21,821 nt of DNA, from positions 1 to 21,821 of the forward strand of contig JAVZNE010000014.1 of assembly GCA_038882975.1 (NCBI GenBank). The letters are read 5' to 3'. The notes under the pieces are model-generated. The model saw only the letters and a list, made by a program, of their open reading frames with translations, did no database searches and was not told the DNA's origin. Shown here in pieces: positions 1-18,638 of this stretch (the stretch's first letter is position 1; each line of letters begins with the position of its first letter). A program made the position numbers and the translations under genes. The DNA comes from Candidatus Bathyarchaeia archaeon. GTDB lineage: Archaea > Thermoproteota > Bathyarchaeia > Bathyarchaeales > Bathycorpusculaceae.

Positions 1-897
1 TATGGGCTTATTGGCTTAAAAATGTTGGCTGAAAAGTATGATGTGGCAAACGCTGGTCTATACCAAAACATGATGCACAAGGCTGCTGATTTCCTCCGCG
101 AGGGCTTTGAAGGCTTATGGCTTCACTATGACCCCTCTGATGGCAAGTGGCATCGTGTGGGCTTGGCGGAAAACGAGGTTTACGATGACTGTTTCGCCTA
201 TGGGCTTTTGGGCTTATACGCCTATGAGGGCTGGAGCCCCTCATGCCAAAAAGTTTACAACTTTATTAACTCGATAGGGGCTTCTACGCAGTATCCAGCC
301 TATAACTCGGCTATTTGTTGGGCTGGCTACATAGACGTTGTTTCGCGTTTTCCAGCATGCGACTACTATGATGGTGTTACCGCTGGTGTCTTGTGGAGCA
401 TCCGCAAGCACCACGACAAGCCAAGCCTCGCCTACAGTGCTAAGATCATAGAAGGGCATGCTGAAAATTTCATGTTTTGGGGCGTTAAGCATGCGGATTA
501 CAGTCCAGTTGAAGAAAAGTGGGCTATGGCTACGGTTTGCTGGCTGGCGAGGCTGTTCCTCAACTATGAAGAGCCCTTAACACGTTTTACTCAGGTGCTT
601 AGGGCTTATGGCAGATGGGTTACACTTTATCCGCTTGTGGCTGTTGGCGAATCGACAATCTACGGCGAGGGTATAGAAATCCAAGCCCTTATCAGTCCAG
701 CTCGGGTTGACGAGGTTCTATTGGAGCCCGGCTACGTTATAAGCGACTATGTTACGGTTTACACTTTTGCACCTATCCGTGTTCGGGATAAAATCCGAGT
801 TGGGAGCGTTGACTACGAGGTTTTAAACGTCCAGACCTTCGATTGGCGGGGCGAAACCGCCTATTTTAGGGGCAGTTGTAGGAGGCTGAATGCATGA
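1..897 (+). CDS. 5'-truncated fusion protein: six-hairpin (alpha/alpha toroid) glycosidase-like region plus C-terminal phage head-closure/head-tail joining domain
   Basis: Frame is open from base 1, so the gene starts upstream of the window. The N-part has helical aromatic motifs (VYDDCFAYGLLGLY, YYDGVTAGVLW). The last ~110 aa (VTLYP...VYTFAPIRVRDKIRVGSVDYEVLNVQ...FRGSCRR) resemble the SPP1 gp16/lambda gpFII beta-fold and directly precede terminator and tube genes. ATGA overlap with the next gene. Confidence 0.6.
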   Translation, partial: YGLIGLKMLAEKYDVANAGLYQNMMHKAADFLREGFEGLWLHYDPSDGKWHRVGLAENEVYDDCFAYGLLGLYAYEGWSPSCQKVYNFINSIGASTQYPAYNSAICWAGYIDVVSRFPACDYYDGVTAGVLWSIRKHHDKPSLAYSAKIIEGHAENFMFWGVKHADYSPVEEKWAMATVCWLARLFLNYEEPLTRFTQVLRAYGRWVTLYPLVAVGESTIYGEGIEIQALISPARVDEVLLEPGYVISDYVTVYTFAPIRVRDKIRVGSVDYEVLNVQTFDWRGETAYFRGSCRRLNA

Positions 898-1334
898 GCG
901 ATGCACAAAACCCAGTGGACATTATCATTCAGTTGCTAGGCGAGAATATGCATGTGGCTAAAGAGGATGGAAGCCTAGCCAAAATCCAATTTAGCCGCGA
1001 ATGGCTAAGCCAAGAGGCTTTACAAAGTGTTGATGGGCATGTGACCGTTGGCTTGGCAGAATGCCTAGATACAAAACTTGAGTTAAGCGGCAAGCTCCGA
1101 AGACGCTTATACACAGTACGCGTTAATGTTTGGAGCCGTGACAGGCTTATCCGCCAAAAAATGGTTGAAGAAGTCATGCGGGTTATCCGCGAAAACCGCA
1201 GCAATCCAGGAGGCTCTCTAGCCTATCTGGATGTGGTTAGTTACCGCGATTTGGACCGTGTGGATGTTAAGCCCTTCATCTACCGCACCGAGTTTGTCTT
1301 GAAGTCATGGGTATTCGAGGATATAGGAGTGTGA
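894..1334 (+). CDS. Putative tail terminator/tail-completion protein (SPP1 gp17/lambda gpU-like)
   Basis: 146 aa, between head-closure and tail-tube genes; pattern YTVRVNVWS...MVEEVMRVI...YRTEFVL fits the terminator fold. Confidence 0.6.
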   Translation: MSDAQNPVDIIIQLLGENMHVAKEDGSLAKIQFSREWLSQEALQSVDGHVTVGLAECLDTKLELSGKLRRRLYTVRVNVWSRDRLIRQKMVEEVMRVIRENRSNPGGSLAYLDVVSYRDLDRVDVKPFIYRTEFVLKSWVFEDIGV

Positions 1335-1341
1335 ATGCGGA

Positions 1342-2211
1342 ATGCCTGAAACCTATGGGGCGCATGAGTGCCGCGTCTACTATGTGCAGGAACCCACTTA
1401 TGGGCAGACGCCAGCCAACCCCTCAATGGTTGCCATTAACGCCGAAAACGTTGAGCCTTCGTTAAATCCAAGCCTCATTCAAGTGCGGGGTGTTGGCAGC
1501 AGAGATTTGGCGGCTCTGAAACGGGGAATGCTGAAACCAACTTTGAAGGTTAGCCACATACTGCCCAGCGACGCGCCTATAGGCTTTATTCAGCATGTGC
1601 AAACCCTAAACAGCCTAAGCATACAAGTGCTTTACTATAAGGGGTTGTTTGCCTCAGCCACAGACATCATAAGCCTACTATACAAGGGCATGCGGATAGA
1701 CAAGCTTTCCGTGGAATGCGGCGTAGACGAGGTTGTTAAGGCAACTGTTGAGCTGATTGGACAAGACGTTACGGTTGGGACGGGCAAAATCACAGGCGCC
1801 ACATATGCGGACTATGCCGGAGCGGTTCCCTATCATCAAAGCTTTGTTCAACGTGGGGCGGCAGACGGTTCAAACTTGTCGGCTGTTGAGCGGGTTACAG
1901 ACTGGAAATTCGCTATTGAAAACAACCTTAAACCAGTGCCTGTCATCCGCACAACAAGCGGGCACCTGCTCAAATATCTACCAGCCCGCCACAGAGAATT
2001 AAGCGGCGAGTTAACCTTCGAGTTTGAAGACAAAGGCGAGTTTGAAGACGTTGTAAATGACAGCGAATTCAGCCTAAAATTCGGACTTGGCGGCTTAAAC
2101 TATGCCCTTTTCAAATACTGCAAATGGGAAAATGTTGCAACGCCAACACGCATAGAAGACTTAGTCAGCCTCAAAGCCCGCTTCATAGCCAGAGACGTGG
2201 TGATAGCCTAA
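1342..2211 (+). CDS. Phage major tail tube protein (non-contractile type)
   Basis: 289 aa; N-terminal E-x-T-Y-G-x-T-P motif, YKGMRIDKLSVEC, DWKFAIENNL and RELSGELTFEF segments typical of tail tube proteins; followed by a chaperone gene. Confidence 0.8.
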   Translation: MPETYGAHECRVYYVQEPTYGQTPANPSMVAINAENVEPSLNPSLIQVRGVGSRDLAALKRGMLKPTLKVSHILPSDAPIGFIQHVQTLNSLSIQVLYYKGLFASATDIISLLYKGMRIDKLSVECGVDEVVKATVELIGQDVTVGTGKITGATYADYAGAVPYHQSFVQRGAADGSNLSAVERVTDWKFAIENNLKPVPVIRTTSGHLLKYLPARHRELSGELTFEFEDKGEFEDVVNDSEFSLKFGLGGLNYALFKYCKWENVATPTRIEDLVSLKARFIARDVVIA

Positions 2212-2681
2212 TGCGAACAGAAACAGTCACGATAGGCGAAGAATATGGCAAAGAGTATGCTGGCAAATACGTTTTCCAGGAGCTTACATGGGCGAAGCGC
2301 AGCCGAATAATCCAAAAACACACAAAATATCATCCACTAACAGGGCATGTGGTTAGCAGCGACTACATAGCCATCCAAGCCGAAACAATAATGGCAAGTC
2401 TAAAAGAACAGCCGCAACACAAGCCCATAACCCTTGAAAAACTTTTAAGCGAAGACCCGGAGAGGGGCATACCAATAGCCCTTGGCGAATTGTTCAGCCA
2501 AATCGTTAACCGCCTAAACAATGTTGGCTTTGAAGAAGCTGCTTTTTTATCAGAGCCATCAGAAGCCAAAAGCCAAACCATGTGCTTACAGAGTTCCGCC
2601 TCTGCAAAGAGTTCGGCTGGACACCGCGGCAGCTCGCCCGACAACCAGCCAAAACCATCCAACAGTTCATCGTCATCCTAA
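2211..2681 (+). CDS. Tail assembly chaperone (gpG-like, unshifted product, 156 aa)
   Basis: Real start is ATG 2211 (TAATG overlap with the tube gene stop), not 2124. The sequence after the slippery site is Ser-rich and low complexity. Confidence 0.75.
   Translation: MRTETVTIGEEYGKEYAGKYVFQELTWAKRSRIIQKHTKYHPLTGHVVSSDYIAIQAETIMASLKEQPQHKPITLEKLLSEDPERGIPIALGELFSQIVNRLNNVGFEEAAFLSEPSEAKSQTMCLQSSASAKSSAGHRGSSPDNQPKPSNSSSSS
2543..2549 (+). promoter_or_regulatory. Programmed -1 ribosomal frameshift slippery heptamer U_UUU_UUA
   Basis: T TTT TTA is in the X_XXY_YYZ phase of the chaperone frame (codons GCT TTT TTA at 2541-2549). Confidence 0.8.
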
Positions 2682-2752
2682 ACGAGCTGGACCGCCAAGC
2701 GGAAGAGGAAAAAGTCAAGATGGAGCGGGAAACCCATTGGCGGTTGAAGTAA
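2549..2752 (+). CDS. -1 frameshift extension of the tail assembly chaperone (gpT-like part of gpGT); not in the ORF track
   Basis: The -1 frame reads IRAIRSQKPNHVLTEFRLCKEFGWTPRQLARQPAKTIQQFIVILNELDRQAEEEKVKMERETHWRLK* (TAA 2750-2752). LCKEFGWTPxQL matches the gpT/GpE-type motif. Confidence 0.8.
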   Translation: MRAIRSQKPNHVLTEFRLCKEFGWTPRQLARQPAKTIQQFIVILNELDRQAEEEKVKMERETHWRLK

Positions 2753-3102
2753 ACATCGAAGTGGATGCCGAAGAGGTCTTGCAAGCACTTCAAAGGTTGG
2801 ATGAGGCTATGCTTAGGCAGGTTCGCGAACAGCTTGAGCGTTGGGCTATGGAGGTCCGCGAATACGCAAGAGCCCTAGCCCCAGCTAGGACGGGCTATTT
2901 GAGAGGCACAATTTACGCTAAAGTTCAGGGTTGGGTTGCCGAAATCGGCGCGGAAGCCTCCTACGCTATGTTCGTAGAGTTTGGCACCCACTACATGCAA
3001 GCTCGCCCCTACCTTAACCCCGCCCTTCAAGAGTTTCTGCCAACCCTTGAACAAGTTATTCTTGAAGCCATTGACAAAGCCAAAGCGGAGGCTGAGCTAT
3101 GA
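2737..3102 (+). CDS. HK97 gp10-like tail completion/neck protein
   Basis: APARTGYLRGTI, YAMFVEFGT and MQARPYLNPAL are hallmark gp10-family motifs. Likely start is TTG 2737 with GGAGCGG upstream; the extension to 2521 overlaps the chaperone and looks non-coding. Confidence 0.85.
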   Translation: MAVEVNIEVDAEEVLQALQRLDEAMLRQVREQLERWAMEVREYARALAPARTGYLRGTIYAKVQGWVAEIGAEASYAMFVEFGTHYMQARPYLNPALQEFLPTLEQVILEAIDKAKAEAEL

Positions 3103-3647
3103 GTTTCCGTGAAATAGCCATAACAGTTCGTGCCATAAACCGTGCAAGCCACGAGTTCGCCAGAATCCAGGCGGACACTGAAGCTTTAAGCGTGCGGATT
3201 AAAAGCCTCGGCGCCGCCATGGCTGGTTTAGGCGCTGCCGGTTCAGCAGTTGTGCATTTAGCCCACCAATTCGGTTTGCTAAACAGTGAACAGACAAAAG
3301 CCTTAGCAAGCCTCACATACCTTGTCACCACAATCGGCATGTTTATACGCTCTTCATGGGGCGTTGCCGTAGCCCAGAAAGTTTACGCTGCAGCCTGCTG
3401 GATAGCCAACGCCGCACAAAACGCCCTAAACATAAGCTTCGCCACATTCCTGGCTTTAACAGGAGTTGGAATAGCCGCCATTATTGGGGCTGCCGCGGCT
3501 GTTTCCTATTTCGCCAGTCAAATGCGCTCTGCAGCAGAATCCGTCAAAGAATACAACGAGGTTGCAGGTGGACTTTACTCCGGTTTTGCTGGGAGAAGCA
3601 TCCGCCGTGCCGGCGAGGAGGAGCTTTACAGGCGAGGCGTAGAATAG
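3099..3647 (+). CDS. Very short tape measure-like protein (182 aa)
   Basis: N-terminal I-x-I-x-V-x-A-x-N-x-A-S motif typical of TMP starts; Ala/Gly-rich helical body with a hydrophobic LTGVGIAAIIGAAAAV segment; sits just before the hub gene. Confidence 0.65.
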   Translation: MSFREIAITVRAINRASHEFARIQADTEALSVRIKSLGAAMAGLGAAGSAVVHLAHQFGLLNSEQTKALASLTYLVTTIGMFIRSSWGVAVAQKVYAAACWIANAAQNALNISFATFLALTGVGIAAIIGAAAAVSYFASQMRSAAESVKEYNEVAGGLYSGFAGRSIRRAGEEELYRRGVE

Positions 3648-3648
3648 C

Positions 3649-5268
3649 ATGAGCGTTGACAATCCAAAGATGGCGGTAGCCTTCGGACAGTATGGCATAC
3701 CCCAAGCCGACGTTATCGAGTGCCGCGTGCATTTGGGCTGCACAAAAGAGGTCAGCAGCTTCGAACTAACACTGCAGAACTGGGATGGCAAATACAGCCC
3801 AAACGGCTCTATCCCGCTGGCTGTCGGGATGGACGGCTCCATCTCCATTGGGAGAGGCTTTAATGTTCCACAGATAATTACCTGCCGCATTGAAAGCCTA
3901 AAATATGAATCCACGCCGGTGGAGCATTACCTGCGGGTTAGCGGGCGATGCTGGGGAGAACGCCTATTCAGACGCGTTTTTACAGGCACTTTTGAAAACA
4001 TGAAAGGCGAAGACATAGTCAAGCATCTACTGGACTATTATGTGGGTTTAAGCCACACGCGGGACGGCACAGAGCTTGTTGAGGCAACGGACACAACCTA
4101 TGTTAAGTTGAAATTTGAGAACACGCCAGTATTTGACATCATCCGCCAAATTGCGGATTCCGCTGACAAAAGCGGCGTTATAGGCTTTGATTTTCGCATA
4201 GCGCCAGACGGAAAGTTTGAGTTTTTCAGGCGGAACAGCAAAACTTCGCCAGTGAGCCTAACCGACCGCATTGAGTTTGCCGAGTACCGTCGAGACATCC
4301 ACCGAATAAGAAACAAGATTTACGTTTATGGAGCAGCTGAAAAGAAAACGCCCGCAGACGCCAACGAGGACGGCTGGACAGAAGCTACAAGCGGCTGGTA
4401 TTCAAACGGCACATTAGCCACAGAATCAAACCATGTAAGCGAGGACGGACAGAAAAAGTACACCGACTCCCTTTGTGTTTACGCTTATGGCGATGGCACA
4501 ACAAGCGAAATATGGCTTTACCGTGAAATTGGCGGATTAAAATTCAACGGTGCCAACGGCTTCAAGCAAATCAACACATGGCTTAACTGGACAAGATATG
4601 GCAGTGCACAGCCAACATCAGCCAAATGCATCCTTTGGCAAACAGCCAACGACCGTTTTGAAATGGACATTAAGCCGCTATTACCGCCACAGGCTACTTG
4701 GGGCAAACTTGTGCTGCGCACGGACCAGCCTACGTGGGTGAGGGTTGGCAACGCTGATTGGCAAAATCCAATAAACGCCATAGGCTTCTACATTATCCAC
4801 GGTGAGGGCTGCATTCCCGTTCTCCGCTTAGACCACCTACACTTTTCAGACTGCCGCTACAGTGCCATGCAAGAGGACGCCAACAGCCAATCAGCCTACG
4901 GCCTAAGGGAGTTAACGGAAACGGATGAGGAGTTGAAAAGCGACAACGAGTGCCATTTAAGGGCTAAAGCATTGCTCAACTATTACAAGGATCCAGCTGA
5001 ACACTTAACCATAAAAAGCACAGTCATAGACTATGGCAATACGCCAATCCTCCCCGGCGATAGAATCTACGTTTCTTTGCCCAACGAAGGCGTAAGCGGC
5101 TACTTCCGCATTGAAAGCGTGGAATACCACATGGACGCCAAAACGCAGACTTTAGAAATAACCCTTGAGCTTGGAAGGGAAACCCCGCTTTTAGCCGACT
5201 ACCTATACGCTTTAAGAAGCAAAACAGACCATTTAAGCCGCTATAAGGCGGGTGTTGCGAGGGTTTAA
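3649..5268 (+). CDS. Baseplate hub/tail tip protein (GpD/Tal-like) with central inserted beta-rich domain
   Basis: SSFELTLQN, LRVSGRC, FDFRIAPDGKFEF, IRNKIYVYG, SQSAYGLRE and ILPGDRIYV...FRIESVEY segments fit hub proteins; immediately after the TMP-like gene. Confidence 0.7.
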   Translation: MSVDNPKMAVAFGQYGIPQADVIECRVHLGCTKEVSSFELTLQNWDGKYSPNGSIPLAVGMDGSISIGRGFNVPQIITCRIESLKYESTPVEHYLRVSGRCWGERLFRRVFTGTFENMKGEDIVKHLLDYYVGLSHTRDGTELVEATDTTYVKLKFENTPVFDIIRQIADSADKSGVIGFDFRIAPDGKFEFFRRNSKTSPVSLTDRIEFAEYRRDIHRIRNKIYVYGAAEKKTPADANEDGWTEATSGWYSNGTLATESNHVSEDGQKKYTDSLCVYAYGDGTTSEIWLYREIGGLKFNGANGFKQINTWLNWTRYGSAQPTSAKCILWQTANDRFEMDIKPLLPPQATWGKLVLRTDQPTWVRVGNADWQNPINAIGFYIIHGEGCIPVLRLDHLHFSDCRYSAMQEDANSQSAYGLRELTETDEELKSDNECHLRAKALLNYYKDPAEHLTIKSTVIDYGNTPILPGDRIYVSLPNEGVSGYFRIESVEYHMDAKTQTLEITLELGRETPLLADYLYALRSKTDHLSRYKAGVARV

Positions 5269-5271
5269 TGT

Positions 5272-5466
5272 TTGTCAAGGGATTTTAGGCGGACAGTTAT
5301 AGAGGTTCGCGAGGACCTGCACCATGAAGTTCGGAAGCTGGCACTGCTTAACGATTTGCGCATCTATCAGCTTGCCAACGCCATTATTGAGGATTACCTT
5401 AAAGATGGTGAGCGGGTGAAAGCCCTAATAAAAAGGCTTAGGCTTCAGCTTCAGCCTCAGCCTTGA
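5272..5466 (+). CDS. Small ribbon-helix-helix/CopG-like DNA-binding protein
   Basis: RRTVIEVREDLHHEVRKLA...IYQLANAIIEDYL fits beta-strand plus two helices; last gene of the tail operon. Confidence 0.6.
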   Translation: MSRDFRRTVIEVREDLHHEVRKLALLNDLRIYQLANAIIEDYLKDGERVKALIKRLRLQLQPQP

Positions 5467-6346
5467 CAGCTTCCAAGAGTTTTCTAATTTCGGCTTTTTC
5501 AGCTTCATCCAAGGGTAGGACTGGCAATCGCGGATAGCCTGCAGGCAATCCAAGCATTCGCATTGCCTCTTTTATGGCTGAAAGCTGGTTGAAGCGTTTG
5601 ACCAGCACTTCGTTTATGCGGGTTATTTTCTTTTGAAGTTTTGCCGCTTTTTCAACGTCGCCTTCCATGTAGGCTTTGTATAGGCTTGCACAAAGCCTTG
5701 GATAAGCGTTGGCTACGGCTATGACGGCGCCTTTTCCACCCAACATAAGTGTCGGCAGCACAACATCGGCTGTTCCAGCCAAAACAGCTATTTTTTCACC
5801 CACTAGGCGTATGGTTTCTGTTATTGTGGCTATGTTTCCACCGCTGTCTTTTACGCCGACAACATGCGAGTATTCTTTGGCGAGCTCTGCAATTACGGCT
5901 GGTTCTAAAGCGTAGCCAGTAAACTTTGGGACGCTGTAGAGGATTATGGGCAAGTCCACAGCCTCTAAAACGGCTTTGTAGTGGGCTGTTAACTCGCGGT
6001 TTGAAAGCCTAAAATAGTAGGGCGTAACCACCACCGCGGCGTCAACGCCCAAGTCTTCGGCGTCCCTTGTAAGCCTTATGGTTTCCCAAGTGCTTGGCGC
6101 GCCTGTTCCAGCCACAACCGTCACGCCACTTTTAGCCTCTTCTAGGACTGCGGCGATTATTTTTTGGCGTTCCTCCCTAGCCAAATAGGGGGCTTCGCCA
6201 TTGCTGCCACAAGGCATAAGCCCATCAACGCCGTTTTCAATCCAGAACCGCGTGCATGTGCGGAGAGCCTTCAAGTCTATTTCGCCTTTTTCAGTGAAAG
6301 GCGTAATATGCGGCACAAATATGCCTTCAAGCCTTGTTTTCTTCAT
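5438..6346 (-). CDS. DapA/NanA-family class I aldolase, 4-hydroxy-2-oxoglutarate aldolase-like
   Basis: TPF, GSNGE, AGTG, ILYSVP and Schiff-base lysine in GVKDSGG; GGGAG upstream of the ATG. Confidence 0.9.
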   Translation of the reverse strand: MKKTRLEGIFVPHITPFTEKGEIDLKALRTCTRFWIENGVDGLMPCGSNGEAPYLAREERQKIIAAVLEEAKSGVTVVAGTGAPSTWETIRLTRDAEDLGVDAAVVVTPYYFRLSNRELTAHYKAVLEAVDLPIILYSVPKFTGYALEPAVIAELAKEYSHVVGVKDSGGNIATITETIRLVGEKIAVLAGTADVVLPTLMLGGKGAVIAVANAYPRLCASLYKAYMEGDVEKAAKLQKKITRINEVLVKRFNQLSAIKEAMRMLGLPAGYPRLPVLPLDEAEKAEIRKLLEAVKAEAEAEA

Positions 6347-6436
6347 GTTTATTCTCCCTTCTCTTGGCGAAGGTTAGGATTTGTTTTCTGCGCTTATAAA
6401 ATATGAGCATTTGCCGCTTGCTAAAAACAGATAAGC

Positions 6437-6670
6437 ATGTTGAGGCTAACAGTTTTTGGTGGCTGGTTGGCGGTTTTGGATTGGCGTAGGTTGAAGCCAG
6501 AGCAGAGGGTGAATTTGGCTGTTGACATGAGCGATGTTTGCATCCGGATTTGTGCTGAAGGCGTTAAAACCCAGAATCCACGTTTAAGCGATGAGGCGCT
6601 TATCGAACTTGTTAGAGAGCGCCTAATGTATGAGAAGAATTCGCGAAGGGGAAGCTGCACAGTTGGATAG
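6437..6670 (+). CDS. Small helical protein, probable partner/antitoxin of the downstream nucleotidyltransferase
   Basis: WRRLKPEQRV...NPRLSDEALIELVRERL; overlaps the next gene; exact start uncertain. Confidence 0.55.
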   Translation: MLRLTVFGGWLAVLDWRRLKPEQRVNLAVDMSDVCIRICAEGVKTQNPRLSDEALIELVRERLMYEKNSRRGSCTVG

Positions 6671-7211
6671 CCTCAAAGGTTTTTTAAGGCGGATTGTAAA
6701 AAGCCTTAACAGTTCTGGTTTGGATTACATGTTTACTGGTGCTTTGGCTGTCAGCTATTATGGTAGGGCGCGCACAACAGTGGACGTTGACATAATTGTT
6801 GCCGCTTTAGGGCGCGATTGGCGGGAAAGACTTGTTTCAGCTTTACAGAAGGCTGGCTTAATAGTGGATGAGAAAAAGCTTGAAGACGCCTTAAAATCCG
6901 GCTATTCCATAACCACTTTTCAAGACGGTAAGTCGCCCTTAACGTTGGATGTCATCCTCTCAAAAGGGCGGCTTGCTAAAAGGCGTGGCAAGATTTTGGG
7001 CTTACCCACCTACTATCAAACGCCTGAAGCCCTTGTTTTGGCTAAGCTTCGCATGATTAGGGCAACCATGCCAAGGGAAAGAGCCCAAAAAGACATAGAA
7101 GACATAAAAGCCATACTAAAATTCACAAAAGTGGACATAGAAGCGGTTAAGCGGCAAGCCGAAAAAGAAGGAACCCTCCAAATCCTTGAGGATGTAATGG
7201 CACAACAATGA
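6663..7211 (+). CDS. Pol-beta-superfamily nucleotidyltransferase (DUF6036/AbiEii-like), putative toxin
   Basis: TGALAVSYYGRARTTVDVD signature, TPEALVLAKL, and R-x-x-KDIEDI; TTG 6663 preferred over ATG 6630. Confidence 0.75.
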   Translation: MDSLKGFLRRIVKSLNSSGLDYMFTGALAVSYYGRARTTVDVDIIVAALGRDWRERLVSALQKAGLIVDEKKLEDALKSGYSITTFQDGKSPLTLDVILSKGRLAKRRGKILGLPTYYQTPEALVLAKLRMIRATMPRERAQKDIEDIKAILKFTKVDIEAVKRQAEKEGTLQILEDVMAQQ

Positions 7212-7443
7212 TGGATGTGGAATTTTTGGTTTTGCTGGAGTATGATGAGGAGAGTAATGCGCTTTACATTCGCTTGAAGGGGGGTGGAAAGCAAGCCCAT
7301 ATCAGACAACCTAATTCTAGACTTGAATGGGAAAGGGGAAATAATAGGCGTAGAAAATTTTAGTACCAAAAACTATGGACTTGGGCAAGTTGTCTTCGCA
7401 GATAAAAATCATAACAAAGAAGCGAAGGCAAACAGAAAATTAG
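7208..7443 (+). pseudogene. DUF2283-family gene with two frameshifts
   Basis: Three frames join to EYDEESNALYIRLKG / VESKPISDNLILDLNGKGEIIGVE / ILVPKTMDLGKLSSQIKIITKKRRQTEN*; breaks at G6 (7279-7284) and A4 (7354-7357). Confidence 0.7.
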
Positions 7444-7865
7444 GCCTCGCCTATCCATATGGTTTGGTTTAAGTCCTTAAAGTGTTGGTCTCCTGTTATG
7501 AGTTTTGCGTTTAGGGTTTTCGCTGTTGCTAGTATTATGGCGTCGAAGAGGCTTGGCGCTTTTAAGCCTTCTTTTTTGGCTTTTTCTGTTAGTTGGGTGT
7601 AGCATTTGGCGGATTCTATGGCTGTTTGTGGGTTTATTGGGGTTATTTCTGTGGTTTCTTCTATGGTTTTCAGGCGTTGTTGGATGGTGTTTTCTTTTGC
7701 GCCTTCGCGTATGTATTTGCGGGCTATTTCTGTTAGAACAATGTCTGGGGTGTAGGCATCCTCGGCTTCTCGGATGGTTTTCATGGCTTTTTCGCCTCGG
7801 CTGCTGCCTATGAAGATTTCAATCCAAGCGTAGGAGTCAACAACTACTGCCGCTGTTGCCGCCAT
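7440..7865 (-). CDS. vapC: PIN-domain ribonuclease toxin
   Basis: VVVDSYAWIE, VLTEI, SLFDAIILATA and ITGDQHF supply the acidic PIN residues; start set at ATG 7865. Confidence 0.9.
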   Translation of the reverse strand: MAATAAVVVDSYAWIEIFIGSSRGEKAMKTIREAEDAYTPDIVLTEIARKYIREGAKENTIQQRLKTIEETTEITPINPQTAIESAKCYTQLTEKAKKEGLKAPSLFDAIILATAKTLNAKLITGDQHFKDLNQTIWIGEA

Positions 7866-8064
7866 TTTCACCACGGTCTTCCTCCGTGAAAGGCTTAATC
7901 TTGCCCTTGTCAATGCCGAAGACTTCGCTTAGGCGTTGTCTGCGTTGCTGGACGATGAAAAGCCTAATGGTTTCGTCTAGGGTTTGGACTCCAAGCTTTT
8001 GGCGTAGCTTCTCAAGCATCTTAAGTGTGGACTTTGAAACCCTAATAGTTGTTGTCTCAGCCAT
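7837..8064 (-). CDS. vapB: VapB-type antitoxin (RHH-like N-terminus)
   Basis: TTTIRVSKSTLKMLEKLR...LDETIRLF; upstream of and overlapping vapC. Confidence 0.8.
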   Translation of the reverse strand: MAETTTIRVSKSTLKMLEKLRQKLGVQTLDETIRLFIVQQRRQRLSEVFGIDKGKIKPFTEEDRGENGGNSGSSC

Positions 8065-8075
8065 ACAGCTTCACA

Positions 8076-8111
8076 TATACCAGTATACAATATACAAGCA
8101 TATAAGCATAC
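8076..8111 (-). promoter_or_regulatory. vapBC promoter/operator: TATA-like element with repeated TATAC half-sites
   Basis: TATAC at 8076, 8084 and 8091; inverted repeat GTATA-N3-TATAC at 8083-8095; CTTATATG on the minus strand near 8099-8106. Confidence 0.5.
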
Positions 8112-8147
8112 TGTAACAAATTTTGAAAACGTCCTAAGCAACACATT

Positions 8148-8325
8148 TTAGGCTGGCGTTTCAGCTATGGCTTTTGGCCGACGTTCCATATCTCCATGCC
8201 CATGATTTCGCCCTTTTCATCAAGTTCCAAATGGATGTCTGGATCAGCCTCCATCACTTCGTGACTTGGTCCCTCTTTGGATAGCAGGTAAAGTATGTCA
8301 ACGTCTTTGTTGTACATGCTTTCAC
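8148..8325 (-). pseudogene. Second, decayed DUF2283-family gene (below ORF-track cutoff)
   Basis: 8317-8165 reads MYNKDVDILYLLSKEGPSHEVMEADPDIHLELDEKGEIMGMEIWNVGQKP*. An out-of-frame GTG AAA GCA start at 8325 and an out-of-frame tail KAIAETPA* ending at 8148 suggest indels. Confidence 0.65.
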
Positions 8326-8375
8326 TTTACCCTAAACCACTGCGCTCTTACCTTGCACTCTCATAATATCTTAAC

Positions 8376-8384
8376 TTATAAATA
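8376..8384 (+). promoter_or_regulatory. Putative TATA box for the methyltransferase operon
   Basis: TTATAAATA ends ~27 nt upstream of GTG 8411, compatible with a leaderless archaeal transcript. Confidence 0.45.
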
Positions 8385-8410
8385 ACCTACACCAAATACA
8401 ATTTAGAGTA

Positions 8411-9274
8411 GTGAAGTTGATGAATGACCAGGAAGTTCAGGCAGCCATTAAGAAAAAGGAGAAGTTGAACGAGTTAGATGGGAAAACTTGGGAGAGATAT
8501 TCTATTAGCATATGGGATATTGTAAAGTCAAGGGAAGAAGTTAAACTCAAACATCCAGCCATGTTTCCTGTGGAATTATGTCGAAGACTGATTGAGATAT
8601 ATACTAAAAAAGGTGATGTGGTTTTAGACCCCTTTATGGGTAGTGGTAGTGCAATAGTTGCTGCTAGAGACTTGGAACGGAAGGGGATTGGTTTTGATAT
8701 CAACCCAGATTTTGTGAAGCTTGCAAAAAAGAGGATATCTCAACAGAAGCTTATACACCTTGGTGTTGAAGATCCTGATATTTATTGTGAGGACGCCAAA
8801 AACCTATTGATGTATGTAAAACCTAACTCTGTGGATTTAGTGATAACTTCTCCCCCCTACTGGAACATTCATACAAGAAAGAGGACGGCGGACTATAAGG
8901 AACCAAGACCATATTCGTCTTTAGAAAGGGATCTCGGGAACATCTCAGATTTCAATAAGTTTATGGAGGAATTGAAGTCTATTTTTGAAAAAGTTTATGT
9001 TGTTTTAAAAAACGGTAAACGATGTATCGTTATTGTTATGGATATTCGTCAAGGTTCTCAGTTCATTCCGTTTCATATGCGCGTAGCAAATATGATGGCG
9101 GAGATAGGTTTTCTTCTTGAAGATATAATAATTTGGGATAGACGTAAAGAGTACAGTAACTTGCGACCATTGGGCTATCCGTATGTTTTCATTGTGAATA
9201 AAGTTCATGAATACATCTTAATATTCAGGAAGAATAGGGTTGAAGAAATTGAAGTCGAAGAAGACCTCGCTTGA
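8411..9274 (+). CDS. Amino (N4-cytosine/N6-adenine) DNA methyltransferase
   Basis: HPAMFP, SAM-binding VLDPFMGSG and catalytic VITSPPYW; SPPY favours m4C; motif I precedes motif IV. Confidence 0.9.
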   Translation: MKLMNDQEVQAAIKKKEKLNELDGKTWERYSISIWDIVKSREEVKLKHPAMFPVELCRRLIEIYTKKGDVVLDPFMGSGSAIVAARDLERKGIGFDINPDFVKLAKKRISQQKLIHLGVEDPDIYCEDAKNLLMYVKPNSVDLVITSPPYWNIHTRKRTADYKEPRPYSSLERDLGNISDFNKFMEELKSIFEKVYVVLKNGKRCIVIVMDIRQGSQFIPFHMRVANMMAEIGFLLEDIIIWDRRKEYSNLRPLGYPYVFIVNKVHEYILIFRKNRVEEIEVEEDLA

Positions 9275-10220
9275 CTATATCGATGAAGATGTGGCTTATT
9301 TTATTGGATTAATAACCGCTAGGGGCGAAATATCTGATCAAGGAGGAGTAAAGCGAATTTCCATAGAATTTCCCTTTAGGAATTTAGAGGTTGAAGGCGT
9401 AAAGAAGAAGATAACACAAAAAGATAAGATATTGTTAAGCTTGGACAGAACCATAAATAGGGTTAATGAACTTGCAGATGTTAACGTTAGAAAAACCGAG
9501 AGCGAACATTCGGTCTATCTTGTACTCGAAACATTAAAAAATACCATGTTTTTGCGAAATATCAGAATGCTTATGAAAGGTAGAAGCTCTTACTATGAGT
9601 TCGAGATTCCCGACCAAATTTTTGAGTCAAGCGATTCTATTAAAAAGGAATTTATCCGTGGATTTGCCGATGTTGCTGGATCTGCCAGGTGGGCGAACAG
9701 AAATAAGTGGGGAAAATGTAGGGTTTATCTGGATGTCCTTAACAGTCCATCCAATTGGCGTTTGCCGGTTCAAATTTGTCATCTTTTGCAAGATCATTTG
9801 GGAATTCCTGTAGATGTTATTCAGTGGGGTCATCCTAATACTAGAGACCCAAGCTTAAGGGAATATAAGGCTGGACGGAAGGATGCTTGGGCGAGAGAGC
9901 ACCAAATAAAAATTTTTGCAGATGATTTTGAGAAAATAGGTTTCTATATGTCCCATAAACAAGAAATACTTGAAGAACTTGCAGAATACAATAAGACGAA
10001 GGGGTTTGCAAAGGCAAACTTTTGCAATCCGCCAAAAAGAAGAAAAACTAAACCGAAGCATCCTGCTGAAAATTCTGAGAAACTACCTTTAGAAATTCGT
10101 GGAAAGCATTACGACTCTTATTGGCAGATTTGCGCGGATTTGGGTTGCGTAAGATACGCAAATTTCGTTAAAAGACATAAACGACTGACCAAATGGATGG
10201 AATCTAAAAAGAAGAAGTGA
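9240..10220 (+). CDS. Double-motif LAGLIDADG-fold protein with degenerate catalytic positions and Cys/His-containing C-terminus
   Basis: AYFIGLITARGEI (~9294-9332) and KEFIRGFADVAGS (~9645-9683), with IPDQIF preceding motif 2 as in DOD/WhiA-like proteins; C-terminal FCNP...H...ICADLGC. Confidence 0.6.
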   Translation: MKKLKSKKTSLDYIDEDVAYFIGLITARGEISDQGGVKRISIEFPFRNLEVEGVKKKITQKDKILLSLDRTINRVNELADVNVRKTESEHSVYLVLETLKNTMFLRNIRMLMKGRSSYYEFEIPDQIFESSDSIKKEFIRGFADVAGSARWANRNKWGKCRVYLDVLNSPSNWRLPVQICHLLQDHLGIPVDVIQWGHPNTRDPSLREYKAGRKDAWAREHQIKIFADDFEKIGFYMSHKQEILEELAEYNKTKGFAKANFCNPPKRRKTKPKHPAENSEKLPLEIRGKHYDSYWQICADLGCVRYANFVKRHKRLTKWMESKKKK

Positions 10221-10227
10221 AAAGGAA

Positions 10228-10725
10228 TTGTATAAGAAAGAGAAAGAAATGTATCCTGATGTCTGTTTGTGGTTCAAGAAAACGTTGCAAAGTAAGTTTA
10301 AAAATGCTAGAATATGTGTCGAAGATACTTCTAAAAAGGTTCTCTCAAAATGGCTTCTTGAGAAAGGTTTTCATGTATACTTTCCTGACCACCAAACGTA
10401 TGAGATTGAAGTTGATGTAACCGGGGTTATTGTAAAATCAGACAAAGAAGCGCATTTGGGACTTGTTGAATGTAAGCTCGGTAGAATAAACCTACGGGAT
10501 TTTTCCCAATTGTTAGGATACAGCAAGGTTGCCTTACCATTGTATTCTATAATACTTTCACCAAAAGGAGTCTCAAATTCAATAAATCTTCTTTTTAATG
10601 TTGCCAGAAGGAATGATATACTTTACTATTCGCGCGATAGGCATATCTTTATTGCTCAATGGGATGAACGGAAAAAGGAAATAGATTTCTCAACTATAAT
10701 TCCCAAAGGCGTTCGTATCCCTTAA
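10228..10725 (+). CDS. Small PD-(D/E)xK restriction-endonuclease-fold protein
   Basis: N-terminal helix with E (EKEMYP), EVDVTG, LVECK and downstream SQLLGY (Q-x-x-x-Y). Confidence 0.7.
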   Translation: MYKKEKEMYPDVCLWFKKTLQSKFKNARICVEDTSKKVLSKWLLEKGFHVYFPDHQTYEIEVDVTGVIVKSDKEAHLGLVECKLGRINLRDFSQLLGYSKVALPLYSIILSPKGVSNSINLLFNVARRNDILYYSRDRHIFIAQWDERKKEIDFSTIIPKGVRIP

Positions 10726-10761
10726 GTTTATGAATTGGTAAATTTCTGAATTTTGCCTCTC

Positions 10762-10803
10762 TTTATATTCAATCCTTGCCTTGTGTTTTGTTTGATGGTG
10801 GTG
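10762..10803 (+). promoter_or_regulatory. Putative TATA box and Shine-Dalgarno for the packaging operon
   Basis: TTTATAT at 10762-10768 and GGTGGTG at 10797-10803 before ATG 10805. Confidence 0.4.
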
Positions 10804-10804
10804 T

Positions 10805-11197
10805 ATGAGGGAGGTTGTTAGGCGGGTTAGGGAGTTAAGCCTTGGTGATTTGGTTCGTGTTGAGTGGTTTGACGCTAGCATTGGCAAGAGTCTCAGCGGC
10901 GGCTTAAACGGCATAGACGTTCCAGTTGTTAGCTGGGGCATATTTCTAGGCGTTTTGGGCTCTAAGAACCGGCATATTATTTTGGCTCAGAATTGTTTTC
11001 GTTATGCTGATGGCTTCTACGACATTGACTATACGGCTGTGCCGCTGGCTTGGACAAGCAACACCAATGTAATCGCCAAAGCCCATGTCCAGCCCGAAGA
11101 AGCCAAACAGCTTCTAAACAGCTTCTTGGTGGGCGGCAAACGCGCCTCGATAAAGGGCAAGAAACACCATCAACAGAGGGTTAAAAACCATGAATGA
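10805..11197 (+). CDS. Hypothetical beta-rich protein, first gene of packaging operon
   Basis: LGDLVRVEWFDAS...SWGIFLG pattern is reminiscent of small Sm/SH3-like viral proteins; SD present; overlaps the next gene. Confidence 0.6.
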   Translation: MREVVRRVRELSLGDLVRVEWFDASIGKSLSGGLNGIDVPVVSWGIFLGVLGSKNRHIILAQNCFRYADGFYDIDYTAVPLAWTSNTNVIAKAHVQPEEAKQLLNSFLVGGKRASIKGKKHHQQRVKNHE

Positions 11198-11420
11198 CTG
11201 GATTAAGAAGGCTTTGACGAGGCGTGTTAGGAATAAAGAAATCCCACCAGACCAACGCCTAGTTTATGGCGTAAAATTCGCATTAGCCATGACAATAAGC
11301 CTATCCGCCCTAGAAATCGCCCATCTGGCTTTCACTGGCAGGTGGAACAGCGAAATCTTCGCCGCCATAACAGGCTTGACCGGCACTGTAAGCGGCATTC
11401 TCATAGCACAAAAAACCTAG
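11190..11420 (+). CDS. Small two-TM membrane protein, holin-like candidate
   Basis: 76 aa; basic N-terminus, then two hydrophobic segments (VYGVKFALAMTISLSALEIAHLAF; IFAAITGLTGTVSGILIA). Confidence 0.5.
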   Translation: MNDWIKKALTRRVRNKEIPPDQRLVYGVKFALAMTISLSALEIAHLAFTGRWNSEIFAAITGLTGTVSGILIAQKT

Positions 11421-11434
11421 AGGGGTAGGCACTA

Positions 11435-11770
11435 TTGGTTAAAATCAGCCGCAATAAAATGTTGAAAAACAGAATCCAAAAACTCAGAACGGAGGTGAAA
11501 ATAGACACCCAAAAACTCAGAGACGAAACCATAAAAAACCTACAAGAACTCTTCACACTAGCCAAAAGCCAAGCCCAAAACGAAAACCTACGCCTAAAAC
11601 AACGCCAAAACTGGACCCGCATAGCCGCCTACATATGCCAAGTAATAAACACCATAGCCACCCGCTTCGACGAACGCCAAATAGACGAAGACTTGGCAAA
11701 ACTGGAGGCGCTAATAAATGAAGCAGCGGCAAAAACAAAAACTCAAACGATTGGAACAAGCACTTGCTGA
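11435..11770 (+). CDS. Putative terminase small subunit
   Basis: 111-aa basic helical protein overlapping the start of terL; assigned by position only. Confidence 0.5.
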   Translation: MVKISRNKMLKNRIQKLRTEVKIDTQKLRDETIKNLQELFTLAKSQAQNENLRLKQRQNWTRIAAYICQVINTIATRFDERQIDEDLAKLEALINEAAAKTKTQTIGTSTC

Positions 11771-13082
11771 AGCCTTCACACCACCTATACCAGCCGACCC
11801 AGTAGAATTCTGCACCCAAATATTGGGCTTCCAGCCAACCCAGTACCAAACAGAACTAATCCGCAAGTTCCAAACCAGCCAATTCACAGCCGCCCGATGG
11901 TGCCGCCAAAGCGGAAAAACCCAAACAGTATCCGCCTTATTGCTACACTACGCACTAACAAACCCAAACACATGCATAGGCATAGTTGGACCAAGCTGGC
12001 GCCAAACAAAACACGTTATTAGGCGAATAAACGCCCTTCTCAAAAAGCTCCCAAAAGGCTTATACGAAAAACCCCAGCAGACGGCGGTACGCCTAAAAAA
12101 CGGAAGCATAATAGAGGCTTATCCGAACAATCCGGAAACAATCCGCGGACCAACATTGCATATTGTCTACGCAGACGAATTCAATTTTATACCAAACGAC
12201 AAAGACTTGTATGACGCCATACTCTTTACGCTTAGCGCAACAAACGGAAAATTCATATGCACAAGCACACCATGGCACACAGACAGCATTTTCTGGCGGA
12301 TTTGGCACGACCCAGCCTACAGCGACTATGCGAAAAGCCACGTAACCCACCAGCAAGCCACAGAACCCAACGGACCACTAAAACGCGAAATCCTACAAAA
12401 AATTAGGAGGCAGCTGGAAAACGACCAGTGGCGATGGCAACGCGAAATGATGGCAGAATGGGCAGAAGACCAAAACACATGGCTAACCCAATCATTAATA
12501 GTAGCCTGCATAGACCCAACCCTAGAATACACAGCCTACAACAAACCCGCCCAAGGACGATTCTACGCAGGACTAGACCTAGGCAAACACCAAGACCCCA
12601 GCGTATTGGCGGTACTAAAACAAGAACAAGACAACACCCTAAGGCTAGTGCACATGCACAGATTCCCACTAAAAACGCCATACGCCACAGTAATAGGCTA
12701 TACAAAAACCCTATGCGAAAAATGGCAAACCACCCAAAAACTCCTAGTAGACATGACAGGAGTAGGCGAATACATAGTAGAAGACATGAAAAACACAGGC
12801 ATGAACACCCAAATAGAAGGCGTAAAATTCACCCAAGAAACAAAAGAGCAACTTGCCAACAACCTAAAACAACTCATGACTGAAAAGCGCCTAAAAATCC
12901 CCTACGACCCAGAACTAATAGCAGAACTAAACACAGAACGCTACCAACTAACAAAAGAAGGCAAAATACGCCTAACCCGCCCAGAAGGCACCCACGACGA
13001 CCGCTTCTGGAGCCTAGCACTCGCGGCATATGCAGCAAAAACCCAACCGCCAACACCAGCCCTATGGATAGTGCCAAAATGA
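11718..13082 (+). CDS. terL: Terminase large subunit
   Basis: Q motif (PTQYQ), Walker A RQSGKT, IRG, Walker B VYADEF, motif III TSTP, nuclease residues in GLDLG, VDMTGVG and HDDRFWSLALA all intact. Confidence 0.95.
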   Translation: MKQRQKQKLKRLEQALAEAFTPPIPADPVEFCTQILGFQPTQYQTELIRKFQTSQFTAARWCRQSGKTQTVSALLLHYALTNPNTCIGIVGPSWRQTKHVIRRINALLKKLPKGLYEKPQQTAVRLKNGSIIEAYPNNPETIRGPTLHIVYADEFNFIPNDKDLYDAILFTLSATNGKFICTSTPWHTDSIFWRIWHDPAYSDYAKSHVTHQQATEPNGPLKREILQKIRRQLENDQWRWQREMMAEWAEDQNTWLTQSLIVACIDPTLEYTAYNKPAQGRFYAGLDLGKHQDPSVLAVLKQEQDNTLRLVHMHRFPLKTPYATVIGYTKTLCEKWQTTQKLLVDMTGVGEYIVEDMKNTGMNTQIEGVKFTQETKEQLANNLKQLMTEKRLKIPYDPELIAELNTERYQLTKEGKIRLTRPEGTHDDRFWSLALAAYAAKTQPPTPALWIVPK

Positions 13083-14584
13083 AACGCCAAAAAGAAATTT
13101 TCCAAATCAAAAGCATAAAACGCCGCTACGACCACGCAACAGGCAAATTCATAATAAACATAGCCTACAAAACAGCCCCACCAAAACCAACAAAAAGAGT
13201 TTTAGGCGTAGCAGAAACCTTTGGGCTCGGCTTAGACCAAACAACAAAATTCACAATATACGAAAACGCAGAAATAAAAATCGGCGTTGGCGACATCGTC
13301 TACATAACAGGCGAAAGCGGCTCAGGAAAAAGCATCCTCCTAAAAGCCCTAGAAAAAGACATCCGAAAATACACACCCCACACATGCATAAACATTGGGC
13401 AAATAAAACCCCCACCCAACAAGCCCATAATAGAAACGGTGGGCAAAACCTTCCAACAAGCCCTTGGGCTTCTAAGCCTAGTAGGCTTAAACGATGCTTT
13501 TATTTTCCTCCGCACCTATCGGCAACTCAGCGACGGACAAAAATATAGATACAAAATAGCCAAACTAATAGAAAGCCAAGCCCAATTCTGGATACTAGAC
13601 GAATTCGCAGCAACCCTAGACCGTGACACAGCAAAAATAGTGGCATACAACCTCCAAAAAACCGCAAGACGCATGGGCAAAACAGTCATAGCCGCCACAA
13701 CCCACACAGACCTCCACGAAGACCTAAACCCCTCAATCCACATTCATAAACGCTACGGAAAAGAAATAACAGTCAAATATCACCCAAACACGCCAGCCAA
13801 AGAATGCAGCCTAACACGAGAAATACGCATAGAACAAGGCGCAAAAGCCGACTACAAAGCGTTAAGCCAATTCCACTATCGTTCAAGCCATCTGCCGCCG
13901 CCGAGAAAAACCTTCACCATGAAACGCGGAGAAGAAACATGCGGAGTAATCGTCTACAGCTACCCACCACCAACAATGTTCGGAAGAAGCCAAATCTGGA
14001 AAGGTAACCACCAACAACTCCAAAAAGAAATTAGCACAATAACCCGAGTAATAATCCAACCAAAATACCGCGCAATAGGCCTAGGAACAAAACTCGTAAA
14101 AGAAACACTTCCATTAGCCGGAACACCCTACGTGGAAACATTAGCCGTCATGGCAAAATACAACCCCTTCTTCGAAAAGGCCGGAATGCGAAAGATAGCC
14201 GAAAGCAAGCCCAGCCCCCACCTGCAAAAAGCCATGGAAAAGCTGGAAGCCCTAGGATTCAAGCCATACATGCTCCAAAGCCAAAGATACAGCATAGAAA
14301 AGCTAAACGAGGTCGGCAAAACCGAAGTTATAAAAATACTAACCGAACTTTCAGAGAAAGGCGCCATTCCCAGAAAAAGAATCATATCCACAAGCGAAGC
14401 CTACCCAAGCCACAAAGAATTCAAAGAAAAAATAGAAAAGCTAAACAGTGAAGGGCTAGCAAAAGCGCTGAAAAAGCTAAGCTTCCTAACACAGACAAAA
14501 GTTTACCTTTTCTGGGCTAAAGACTGGCTTAACGCCAGGAAGCAGCCCAATCTTGGCGTAAAACCTTCTCCACATAAAACTTAG
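13079..14584 (+). CDS. ABC-type ATPase fused to GNAT acetyltransferase (COG2401-like)
   Basis: GESGSGKS, signature LSDGQ, Walker B ILDEF with D-loop ATLD, H-loop ATTH; then FHYR and acetyl-CoA motif RVIIQPKYRAIGLG; ATG 13079 overlaps the terL stop (ATGA). Confidence 0.85.
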   Translation: MKRQKEIFQIKSIKRRYDHATGKFIINIAYKTAPPKPTKRVLGVAETFGLGLDQTTKFTIYENAEIKIGVGDIVYITGESGSGKSILLKALEKDIRKYTPHTCINIGQIKPPPNKPIIETVGKTFQQALGLLSLVGLNDAFIFLRTYRQLSDGQKYRYKIAKLIESQAQFWILDEFAATLDRDTAKIVAYNLQKTARRMGKTVIAATTHTDLHEDLNPSIHIHKRYGKEITVKYHPNTPAKECSLTREIRIEQGAKADYKALSQFHYRSSHLPPPRKTFTMKRGEETCGVIVYSYPPPTMFGRSQIWKGNHQQLQKEISTITRVIIQPKYRAIGLGTKLVKETLPLAGTPYVETLAVMAKYNPFFEKAGMRKIAESKPSPHLQKAMEKLEALGFKPYMLQSQRYSIEKLNEVGKTEVIKILTELSEKGAIPRKRIISTSEAYPSHKEFKEKIEKLNSEGLAKALKKLSFLTQTKVYLFWAKDWLNARKQPNLGVKPSPHKT

Positions 14585-15371: not shown

Positions 15372-15476
15372 TTTCCGAAGCAACCAACTGTTAGTTTCTA
15401 TTTGGATTTTTGATTCATAAAGCCTTTTTGAAACTAGCCCAATTTTAGCCATGAAAGGCGACATGGTGCATTATGG

Positions 15477-15722
15477 TTGAAGGCTGAGCCAGCAATAGTT
15501 GTAACAGTTGTAATCTGCCTATTCCTAACCTTCTACTTCTCATACTTATCCCTCCAAGCTTTTGAAGACACCATAAAAAAGCAGTTTGTCCTACTCGCCT
15601 TCTTATCCCTCCTAACCGGAGCAACAATCTTTGGCTGCCTAGCCATCTACCTTGGAATAAGAAAGATTTTCATAAGAGCCGAGCTGAGCGATCTCCAGGA
15701 AACGCGGGAAAGCGAAGACTGA
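15477..15722 (+). CDS. Small two-TM membrane protein, unknown function
   Basis: Two long hydrophobic stretches and a charged C-tail. Confidence 0.55.
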   Translation: MKAEPAIVVTVVICLFLTFYFSYLSLQAFEDTIKKQFVLLAFLSLLTGATIFGCLAIYLGIRKIFIRAELSDLQETRESED

Positions 15723-15777
15723 ACCTCCAATGTCTCATATGCCAAATTTTTTATTCTTAAGACTATGACTATGCTGA

Positions 15778-18509: not shown

Positions 18510-18638
18510 CTCGCTTTAGGCCATGTCCCAAATAAAATCTTCAATCTCGCCGAAGGACAAATACAGGAACTTAAAGTTTGAAGAAACTCTTTGAAAACTT
18601 AGTTTCAGCCTCTGGGGCCGTTTCTTTGCGAAAAGACT

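Follow-up and report, generated by a model that had tools for sequence, protein, structure and literature searches.

To our knowledge, it is only in bacteria that the genes of gene transfer agents (GTAs) are well defined; for the one archaeal case that we know of, in Methanococcus voltae, no genes have been assigned. Little is known of gene exchange among the Bathyarchaeia, an abundant and mostly uncultured group. Here we describe a tailed-virus-like element in the chromosome of a hot-spring Candidatus Bathyarchaeia archaeon (family Bathycorpusculaceae), part of which lies in a 21,821-nt stretch of DNA (assembly GCA_038882975.1, contig JAVZNE010000014.1, positions 1 to 21,821; hereafter the window). 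A sequence-only reading of the first 14,584 bases had taken these genes for a split, miniaturised and domesticated virion gene set and a candidate archaeal GTA.

Among the closest known counterparts are the RcGTA-type agents of Alphaproteobacteria (Rhodobacter capsulatus; PMC10883770, PMC5721377 and PMC13669383). They share with the element a chromosomal head–tail–terminase cluster with a core of ~15 kb, the lack of integrase and replication genes, vertical descent, purifying selection and loss in part of the clade; host-controlled expression would be a further, likely resemblance. The origins are independent, with no sequence kinship seen. The element also differs in having an archaeal host, a large terminase gene (TerL) that closes the cluster at its 3' end and is accompanied by an ABC-ATPase/GNAT gene, islands of cargo within the cluster and modules exchanged with living relatives.

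Within the Thermoproteota, thaumarchaeal head–tail proviruses (Krupovic et al. 2019, PMC6563490) likewise combine, in the passage concerned, an apparently functional morphogenesis module with no attachment (att) sites or replication apparatus, and the authors raised the same idea of GTA-like domestication for them. These proviruses are highly divergent among themselves and the passage reports no co-phylogeny with the host. Fuxiviridae and Kunpengviridae (PMC10848311) and BATPV1 and BATPV2 (PMC11705971) resemble the element in their Bathyarchaeia hosts, HK97 capsid, portal, TerL and tube, and some of them are integrated. According to the same excerpted descriptions, however, Kunpengvirus carries an integrase, an MCM-like helicase and a family B polymerase, none of which is found in the element, and Fuxivirus is 32 kb long with TerL numbered beside the portal, whereas in the element TerL comes last. 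The comparison with Fuxivirus, Kunpengvirus and BATPV1/2 follows these published descriptions. We found no GTA-like element of Bathyarchaeia in the literature, supplements that may list related proviruses lying outside the search; the nearest report is PMC6563490.

Head, tail and packaging genes form one continuous unit

The window is the entire contig C14 of its genome, G000 (1.42 Mb, 15 contigs, 94.7% complete; G numbers denote genomes, L numbers loci, and C11 and C14 contigs of G000). C11 ends in the same 127 bases with which the window begins, an exact overlap, and the same genes run unbroken over this join in G005, G013, G003 and G007. The capsid and probable portal genes at the end of C11 therefore lie directly upstream of the window, which is where the sequence-only reading had advised looking for a portal and an HK97 capsid.

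The element extends from C11:33616 to window base 14584, a length of 25.1 kb. Its genes follow the order protease-like P404, cement protein, HK97 capsid, probable portal, connectors, neck, tube, hub, RHH protein, cargo island and u130–u76–u111–TerL–ABC/GNAT. With family matches for the capsid, cement, tube, tail-completion, hub and TerL proteins, and a weak one for the portal, this is a complete head, tail and packaging gene set in the host chromosome. No second copy of any structural gene was found in G000.

The 49 loci from viral collections all show the same gene order over the part that they cover, and those that reach far enough have the terminase last. In the distant relatives L091, L096, L097 and L049 the hub gene is followed directly by u130–u76–TerL–ABC/GNAT, with no island. 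Terminase-last is therefore the normal order of the element family, and the 5.3-kb island of G000 is an insertion at a cargo hot spot. We conclude that the element is a single continuous unit, descended from a small temperate head–tail virus family of Bathyarchaeia.

The apparent split of the gene set thus comes down to a contig edge and an inserted island, and the virion genes, previously thought to be spread over several loci, form one contiguous set across C11 and C14. The gap of ~5.3 kb was real: 5.3–5.5 kb separate the ends of the hub (5268) and RHH (5466) genes from u130 at 10805, with an aldolase, a toxin pair and a methyltransferase inside. The tail and terminase open reading frames (ORFs) were also found intact where they had been placed (tube, tail-completion, hub, TerL). 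As for miniaturisation, the conserved core spans only ~14.8 kb in a compact relative, and we saw no further support for the term.

Vertical descent at a fixed chromosomal site

Upstream of P404, on the opposite strand, lie genes for two 108-aa proteins, a 1310-aa PAS/GAF histidine kinase and a CheY-like regulator, together with a GNAT gene on the element strand. Of the metagenome loci, 35 extend 1.5 kb or more beyond P404 on this side, and 33 of them have this kinase/regulator flank, with kinase identities of 39–83%; many of the kinase-flanked loci lie on contigs of 85–197 kb. Second copies of the element (G005, G006, G015) and copies in other families are without it and have MarR-like, HTH or x172-like genes instead (x172 is described below). 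The block is therefore host DNA; that it might be cargo of the element was ruled out by the second copies that have no such block. For the 108-aa flank protein, the one lead obtained, NitrOD5, is weak (12% of one near cluster; Pfam E 0.0057).

In a portal tree of 121 rows, all 34 kinase-flanked copies fell into one 80-row clade (SH-like approximate likelihood ratio test, SH-aLRT, 93), while 19 of the 21 other-site copies fell outside it; two state changes are needed. Co-divergence with the host was assessed on 27 genomes with a single portal match of at least 74% identity, plus G005 with two. RpoB was found in 24 of the 27; G205 was dropped for its short RpoB fragment, and the other 23 were compared together with G000, giving 24 genomes. 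Pairwise portal and RpoB distances were correlated with a Pearson r of 0.87, a value reached in 0 of 9999 permutations. The two trees share almost all clades across at least 16 genera, with the portal evolving ~1.8 times as fast as RpoB. In seven genomes rpoB lies on the same contig as the portal gene, 45–70 kb away. Within the genus, head, tail and packaging trees did not conflict with flank trees (approximately unbiased test, p 0.14 and 0.33).

Since the element tree matches the RpoB tree over so many genera, no cross-species spread is seen. At the level of sequence, these comparisons show an element that is inherited vertically across many genera of one family, at one chromosomal site. The earlier reading had called for such a comparison and named incongruence with the host as the mark of an ordinary provirus; portal and RpoB trees proved congruent, indeed nearly identical, over the 24 genomes.

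Purifying selection and conserved promoter regions

More than 20 structural and packaging genes had ratios of nonsynonymous to synonymous substitution rates (dN/dS) of 0.03–0.2, at dS of 0.2–1.8 and with dS like that of the flanks; the exceptions were u76 and u111 (0.05–0.68). Most internal metagenome copies were full-length and free of stops: 50 of 54 for the capsid, 74 of 77 for the portal and all 13 for the tube. The head genes are the most conserved and most often retained, evolving about half as fast as the left flank. Judged from these substitution patterns, purifying selection acts on the head, tail and packaging genes, and the dN/dS measurement proposed in the earlier reading thus favours a host-maintained element.

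A predicted promoter of the packaging operon occupies 10724–10768 on the forward strand and comprises four tandem RAATTTNN repeats (10724–10753) and a TATA-like TTTATAT (10762–10768). This array of repeats and TATA-like box, 37–81 nt upstream of u130, compares with 0.09 expected by chance, and bears out the suggestion that the terminase operon has a promoter-like signal of its own. Of 49 distinct upstream regions from relatives, 23 contain a triple repeat, and in 22 of these a TATA-like box follows (shuffled controls, 0.01). The u130 site is the only repeat site in the G000 genome that is combined with a TATA-like box, and in the compact relatives at other sites no separate u130 promoter was found. 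The region upstream of P404 is also conserved across genera and contains two GGCCAA-N-TTGGCC palindromes. Together with the adjacent conserved two-component system, these conserved candidate operator arrays would be features of host control.

Search for mobility and replication genes

The sequence-only reading had seen no integrase, replication gene or att site in the window, and none was found on the C11 side of the element either. Tyrosine integrase (PF00589) had no match on C11 or C14, and Resolvase (PF00239) and Phage_integr_3 (PF16795) had none across the G000 genome. In profile searches of G000, MCM was found only on C1 and Prim-Pol only on C5, neither of them a contig of the element. 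The window contains no tRNA gene, and the element has no flanking direct repeats longer than 13 bp in G000 or longer than 12 bp in G064. Among the small ORFs of the element, no family could be assigned save for one wHTH. The association of att repeats with an integrase and replication module, by which an ordinary provirus was to be recognised, is thus not found at the G000 locus.

The same holds more widely. Nine integrase queries gave no match in 80 metagenome loci or in five further regions of 25–40 kb from other genera, and complete integrase-less copies occur in G191 and G216, both of other genera. A matching circular viral contig had also been named as evidence for a provirus; none of the 33 IMG/VR records of the element family (18 classed as provirus, 15 as linear) has end repeats. 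Terminal repeats were likewise found in none of the 80 metagenome loci, although such collections cannot prove the absence of a free genome. Of 17 public sequencing runs listed for the window, 15 contain part of it, all as assembled contigs and none of them RNA; four of these, aligned to the window, yielded only short pieces of several strains, in which no informative joints, ends or depth were seen. A simple repeat finder detected no CRISPR array in G000.

A GTA-like element and the alternatives

We favour a GTA-like domesticated element, one that is immobile, vertically inherited, under selection and making DNA-filled particles, and hold this reading with evenly balanced confidence. The cell would express two operons under regulation, each preceded by operator repeats and a conserved promoter, and their products would assemble into DNA-filled tailed particles. 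Unable to excise or copy itself, the element would leave its T4-type terminase to fill the heads from chromosomal DNA, as in a GTA. The neighbouring sensor kinase might switch particle production on. The host-maintained particle of the earlier reading survives here in its match to the host tree, its dN/dS and the fact that no integrase, replication gene or att site was found; its dispersal over several loci does not survive.

A more far-reaching version can be put forward only tentatively, namely that a family-level clade of Bathyarchaeia keeps a GTA, derived from a tailed virus captured beside a PAS/GAF kinase, a CheY-like regulator and two small output-like proteins. The kinase system would then turn on the two operator-controlled operons, and the particles would package and deliver chromosomal DNA. 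If true, no earlier archaeal GTA would have been defined by its genes, and the regulator of this one would lie beside it. The locus offers a gene set that is defined and clearly bounded, two conserved promoters, a candidate sensor system and natural knock-outs in sister species, and so makes it directly testable whether tailed viruses have been domesticated for gene transfer in archaea.

Several sets of observations weigh against a GTA-like element. The first concerns loss and decay. At the same site, G010 retains only 37 codons of P404, a fragment of the TerL tail and a pseudogenised aldolase, and G012, G002 and G011 have fragments only. TerL is truncated in G013. In G021 the portal is frameshifted and most tail genes are lost, with capsid and cement intact; the copies in G094 and G137 are degraded, that of G094 keeping an intact capsid and cement but no tail. 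Six of 22 metagenome loci have no tail gene within 9 kb of the portal. Portal relatives occur in 68 of 201 family genomes, or 38 of the 98 of high quality, and the capsid in 6 of 13 species of the same genus. The patchy distribution that had been named as a sign of an ordinary provirus is thus partly borne out, while the accompanying incongruence with the host is not.

The second concerns exchange and mobility. The TerL type has been swapped in G021 and G083, u111 replaced in G000 and the connector cassette replaced in G005, and cargo and defence islands lie inside the cluster. Copies of the element family at other sites are multi-copy, and some lie 5–6 kb from an integrase or beside a tRNA-Arg gene. 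L185 and L188 fall within the kinase clade of the portal tree but adjoin orthologues of G000 C3:99.6–105.8 kb, reflecting either relocation of the element or genome rearrangement. The last concerns the evidence itself. The portal was matched only weakly (21.8 bits, where the cut-off is 39.1), and its structural model has a predicted local distance difference test (pLDDT) score of 45. The 24 co-divergence genomes were preselected by their one portal match at the stated identity. Kinase and capsid identities are only weakly correlated (rho 0.38, p 0.058), over rows that are not independent.

Part of this evidence would be expected of a working temperate virus that co-speciates with its host, excises or replicates in place by unrecognised means and is selected at the virus level, an explanation that we consider unlikely but worth weighing. 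The means might be a recombinase, either unrecognised among the unknown ORFs or encoded elsewhere, or packaging in place followed by homologous recombination in the next cell. The wider family is multi-copy and sits at other sites, with integrases 5–6 kb to the right of ABC/GNAT in L096 and L270 and MarR-like and HTH regulators upstream in relatives. Its members exchange modules, and the cargo and defence islands occupy fixed hot spots, as in prophages. By contrast, the G000 locus has no integrase, serine recombinase, att repeat or tRNA; no integrase was found in the 80 metagenome loci or the five further genomes, nor end repeats in any of the 33 viral records. The element tree matches the RpoB tree over at least 16 genera, and the integrase near L138 adjoins a different tailed element.

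A defective provirus in slow decay, functionless and kept by chance or for its cargo (toxin–antitoxin, methyltransferase, HEC-01), is improbable to our minds. The many decayed copies at the same site, the prevalence of 68 in 201 genomes and the defence-type cargo inside and beside the element would fit such a history. It sits poorly with low dN/dS in more than 20 genes at dS of up to 1.8, with capsid, portal and tube intact in nearly all metagenome copies, with complete sets in several genera and with conserved promoters; moreover, the cargo differs between lineages while the structural genes stay constant.

Domestication for a use other than transfer, be it a capsid-based compartment, a killing or delivery particle or the exclusion of related viruses, appears more improbable still: it would account for the conservation and retention of the head genes at about half the left-flank rate, for capsid and cement intact where the tail is lost (G021, G094) and for the tail-less variants listed below, but the same purifying selection acts on TerL, u130 and the probable portal, which have a conserved promoter of their own, so that DNA packaging would be part of the function, and tail genes are kept in 16 of 22 loci.

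Other classes of element were also compared. An autonomous temperate Caudoviricetes provirus would account for the capsid, TerL and weak portal, but no integrase or att site was found, nor a free genome with terminal repeats among the 33 viral records and 80 metagenome loci. A capsid-forming satellite of the kind of phage-inducible chromosomal islands does not agree with the presence of tail genes, and the integrase and replication gene were not found. A tailocin is at odds with a capsid and TerL that are present and under selection.

Head and neck genes

The head region on C11 encodes the capsid together with P404 (a 404-aa protease-like protein), the cement protein, the probable portal and small connector proteins. 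The capsid match to PF05065 scored 29.6 bits, over a cut-off of 24.2. Against isolate viruses, the best matches were 31% identity for TerL (Thermus and Meiothermus phages) and 24% for the capsid. When the neck protein, portal and P404 were searched as profiles against solved structures, no match was better than an E value of 0.003.

The window opens within the neck protein gene (1–897, forward strand), which encodes the C-terminal 298 of 462 residues and starts on C11; the assignment draws on the full ORF in L105, a structural model and fold matches. In the model (pLDDT 83.6), a predicted N-terminal (alpha/alpha)6 toroid, GH76/epimerase-like, is fused to a C-terminal head-closure/head–tail joining domain. 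Next comes t146, a 146-aa neck or tail protein (894–1334, forward strand) with no Pfam or PHROG match, syntenic in relatives and with a dN/dS of 0.12–0.15. Bases 1–1334 had been read as tail genes; the model and fold matches place neck proteins there instead.

Tail genes

The remaining structural genes of the window are all on the forward strand. The tail tube (1342–2211) matches PF18906 (54.5 bits, 1.7e-14) and phrog_290 (1.3e-19). A 185-aa protein without family match (2124–2681) occupies the position of a tail-assembly chaperone, in an order that is conserved. Its ORF overlaps by 160 nt that of the 193-aa HK97-gp10-like tail-completion/Neck1 protein (2521–3102; PF04883 2.6e-8 over residues 85–155; phrog_5 3.4e-20). 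The overlapped upstream part of the latter contains stops in other species, and its real start is probably internal. A 182-aa protein at the position of a distal tail protein (3099–3647) has no family match and a dN/dS of 0.10–0.21. The tail hub is YqbQ/Tal-like (3649–5268; PF24032 YQBQ-like 5.6e-14; phrog_400 4e-14), and behind it lies a 64-aa Arc/RHH-like protein (5272–5466; weak phrog_582 match, 1e-3), whose gene travels with the element and in many relatives comes after that of the hub. Among the element genes, none was recognised as coding for a tape-measure protein.

Some variants are tail-less (L116, L118, L119, L123, L126, L145): the portal runs into u130–u76–u111–TerL, with a small connector between them in two.

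Packaging operon and right boundary

Two small conserved proteins, u130 and u76 (10805–11420, forward strand), always precede the terminase; they have no family match, and u130 has a dN/dS of 0.02–0.11. On the same strand, u111 (11435–11770) is a candidate small terminase subunit by position only, with no family match. It is ~52% identical to its counterparts in close relatives whose TerL is 96–97% identical, yet 89% identical to that of L055, so its allele has been replaced. TerL (11718–13082, forward strand) combines a T4-type ATPase with an RNaseH-like nuclease, the Terminase_6N and 6C domains both over their cut-offs (PF03237 5.5e-17; PF17289 3.8e-10; phrog_2 7e-43), and has a dN/dS of 0.09–0.13.

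The last gene of the element encodes an ABC-type ATPase–GNAT acyltransferase fusion (13064–14584, forward strand; PF00005, weak GNAT matches, phrog_293 and phrog_886) and begins before TerL has ended. The fusion gene is found with TerL in 44 of 79 loci, in some of them on its upstream side, and is therefore an element gene and not, as first read, the beginning of the host genes behind the terminase. Homologues 32–41% identical occur in large Pseudomonas, Klebsiella and other bacterial phages; TerL of Thermus phage Riverbug has no ABC/GNAT neighbour.

The host right flank (14529–21491, mixed strands) consists of a nucleotidyltransferase (reverse), TldD, PmbA, a 252-aa protein (reverse) and an acetyl-CoA synthetase (reverse), and is syntenic in relatives of the same genus. 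Pairs of TldD/PmbA paralogues, 28–34% identical to each other, flank the element on both sides, at C11:17554–20287 (~13 kb upstream) and at window positions 15778–18509 (1.2 kb downstream). The coding strand of 11000–14500 is strongly A-rich, with an AT skew of 0.36 to 0.49 and a GC skew of about -0.2; the AT skew of the tail genes is -0.06 to 0.24.

Cargo islands

The lineage-specific cargo island (5438–10725, mixed strands) is absent in L091, L096, L097 and L049. It carries a DHDPS-family aldolase (reverse; 8e-83), a weakly AbiEii-like gene, a PIN toxin pair (reverse), an N6/N4 DNA methyltransferase and two unfamiliar genes. The neighbouring DUF2283 genes had been described as decaying, which is true of one, frameshifted at 7238–7355; the other is intact (8180–8314, reverse). 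The methyltransferase and the two unknown genes (8411–10725) have a GC content of 37–39%, a level seen over 8.5–11 kb of the window, and their proteins are 98–99% identical in L047 and G005, where the flanking genes are 85–93% identical. This pattern suggests recent lateral spread of that part of the island.

A HEC-01-type defence pair, an AAA_21 ATPase and a TOPRIM/DUF4276-like protein, lies just left of the head operon (C11:31788–33553; L010 7489–9254). It is not at that place in G005 and G013 and is present in the metagenome loci L193 and L194.

Relatives at other chromosomal sites

The integrase-associated relatives L096, L156/L270, L133 and L138 have the same gene order as the element, with capsids 66–75% and portals 60–64% identical. 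They differ in occupying other sites, in the MarR-like and HTH genes upstream and in having an integrase within 5–6 kb or an adjacent tRNA-Arg gene; in L096 and L270 the integrase lies to the right of ABC/GNAT. In L096, L133 and L138, unlike G000, the hub gene abuts u130 and there is no separate promoter.

Two different family members stand in tandem in G041 (L138 and L166) and in G059 (L148 and L269), with a C5 methyltransferase, a tyrosine integrase and a tRNA-Arg gene between them. The integrase beside L138 was rejected as part of the element, as it lies between a different tailed element and tRNA-Arg; G059 has the same sequence. The 172-aa protein x172 (L010 6389–6907) has no detectable likeness to the HTH protein of L138. 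Its gene stands to the left of P404 on the forward strand in the window's genus and in G191, and at the right end on the reverse strand, partly with stops, in G021, G216, G083 and G094.

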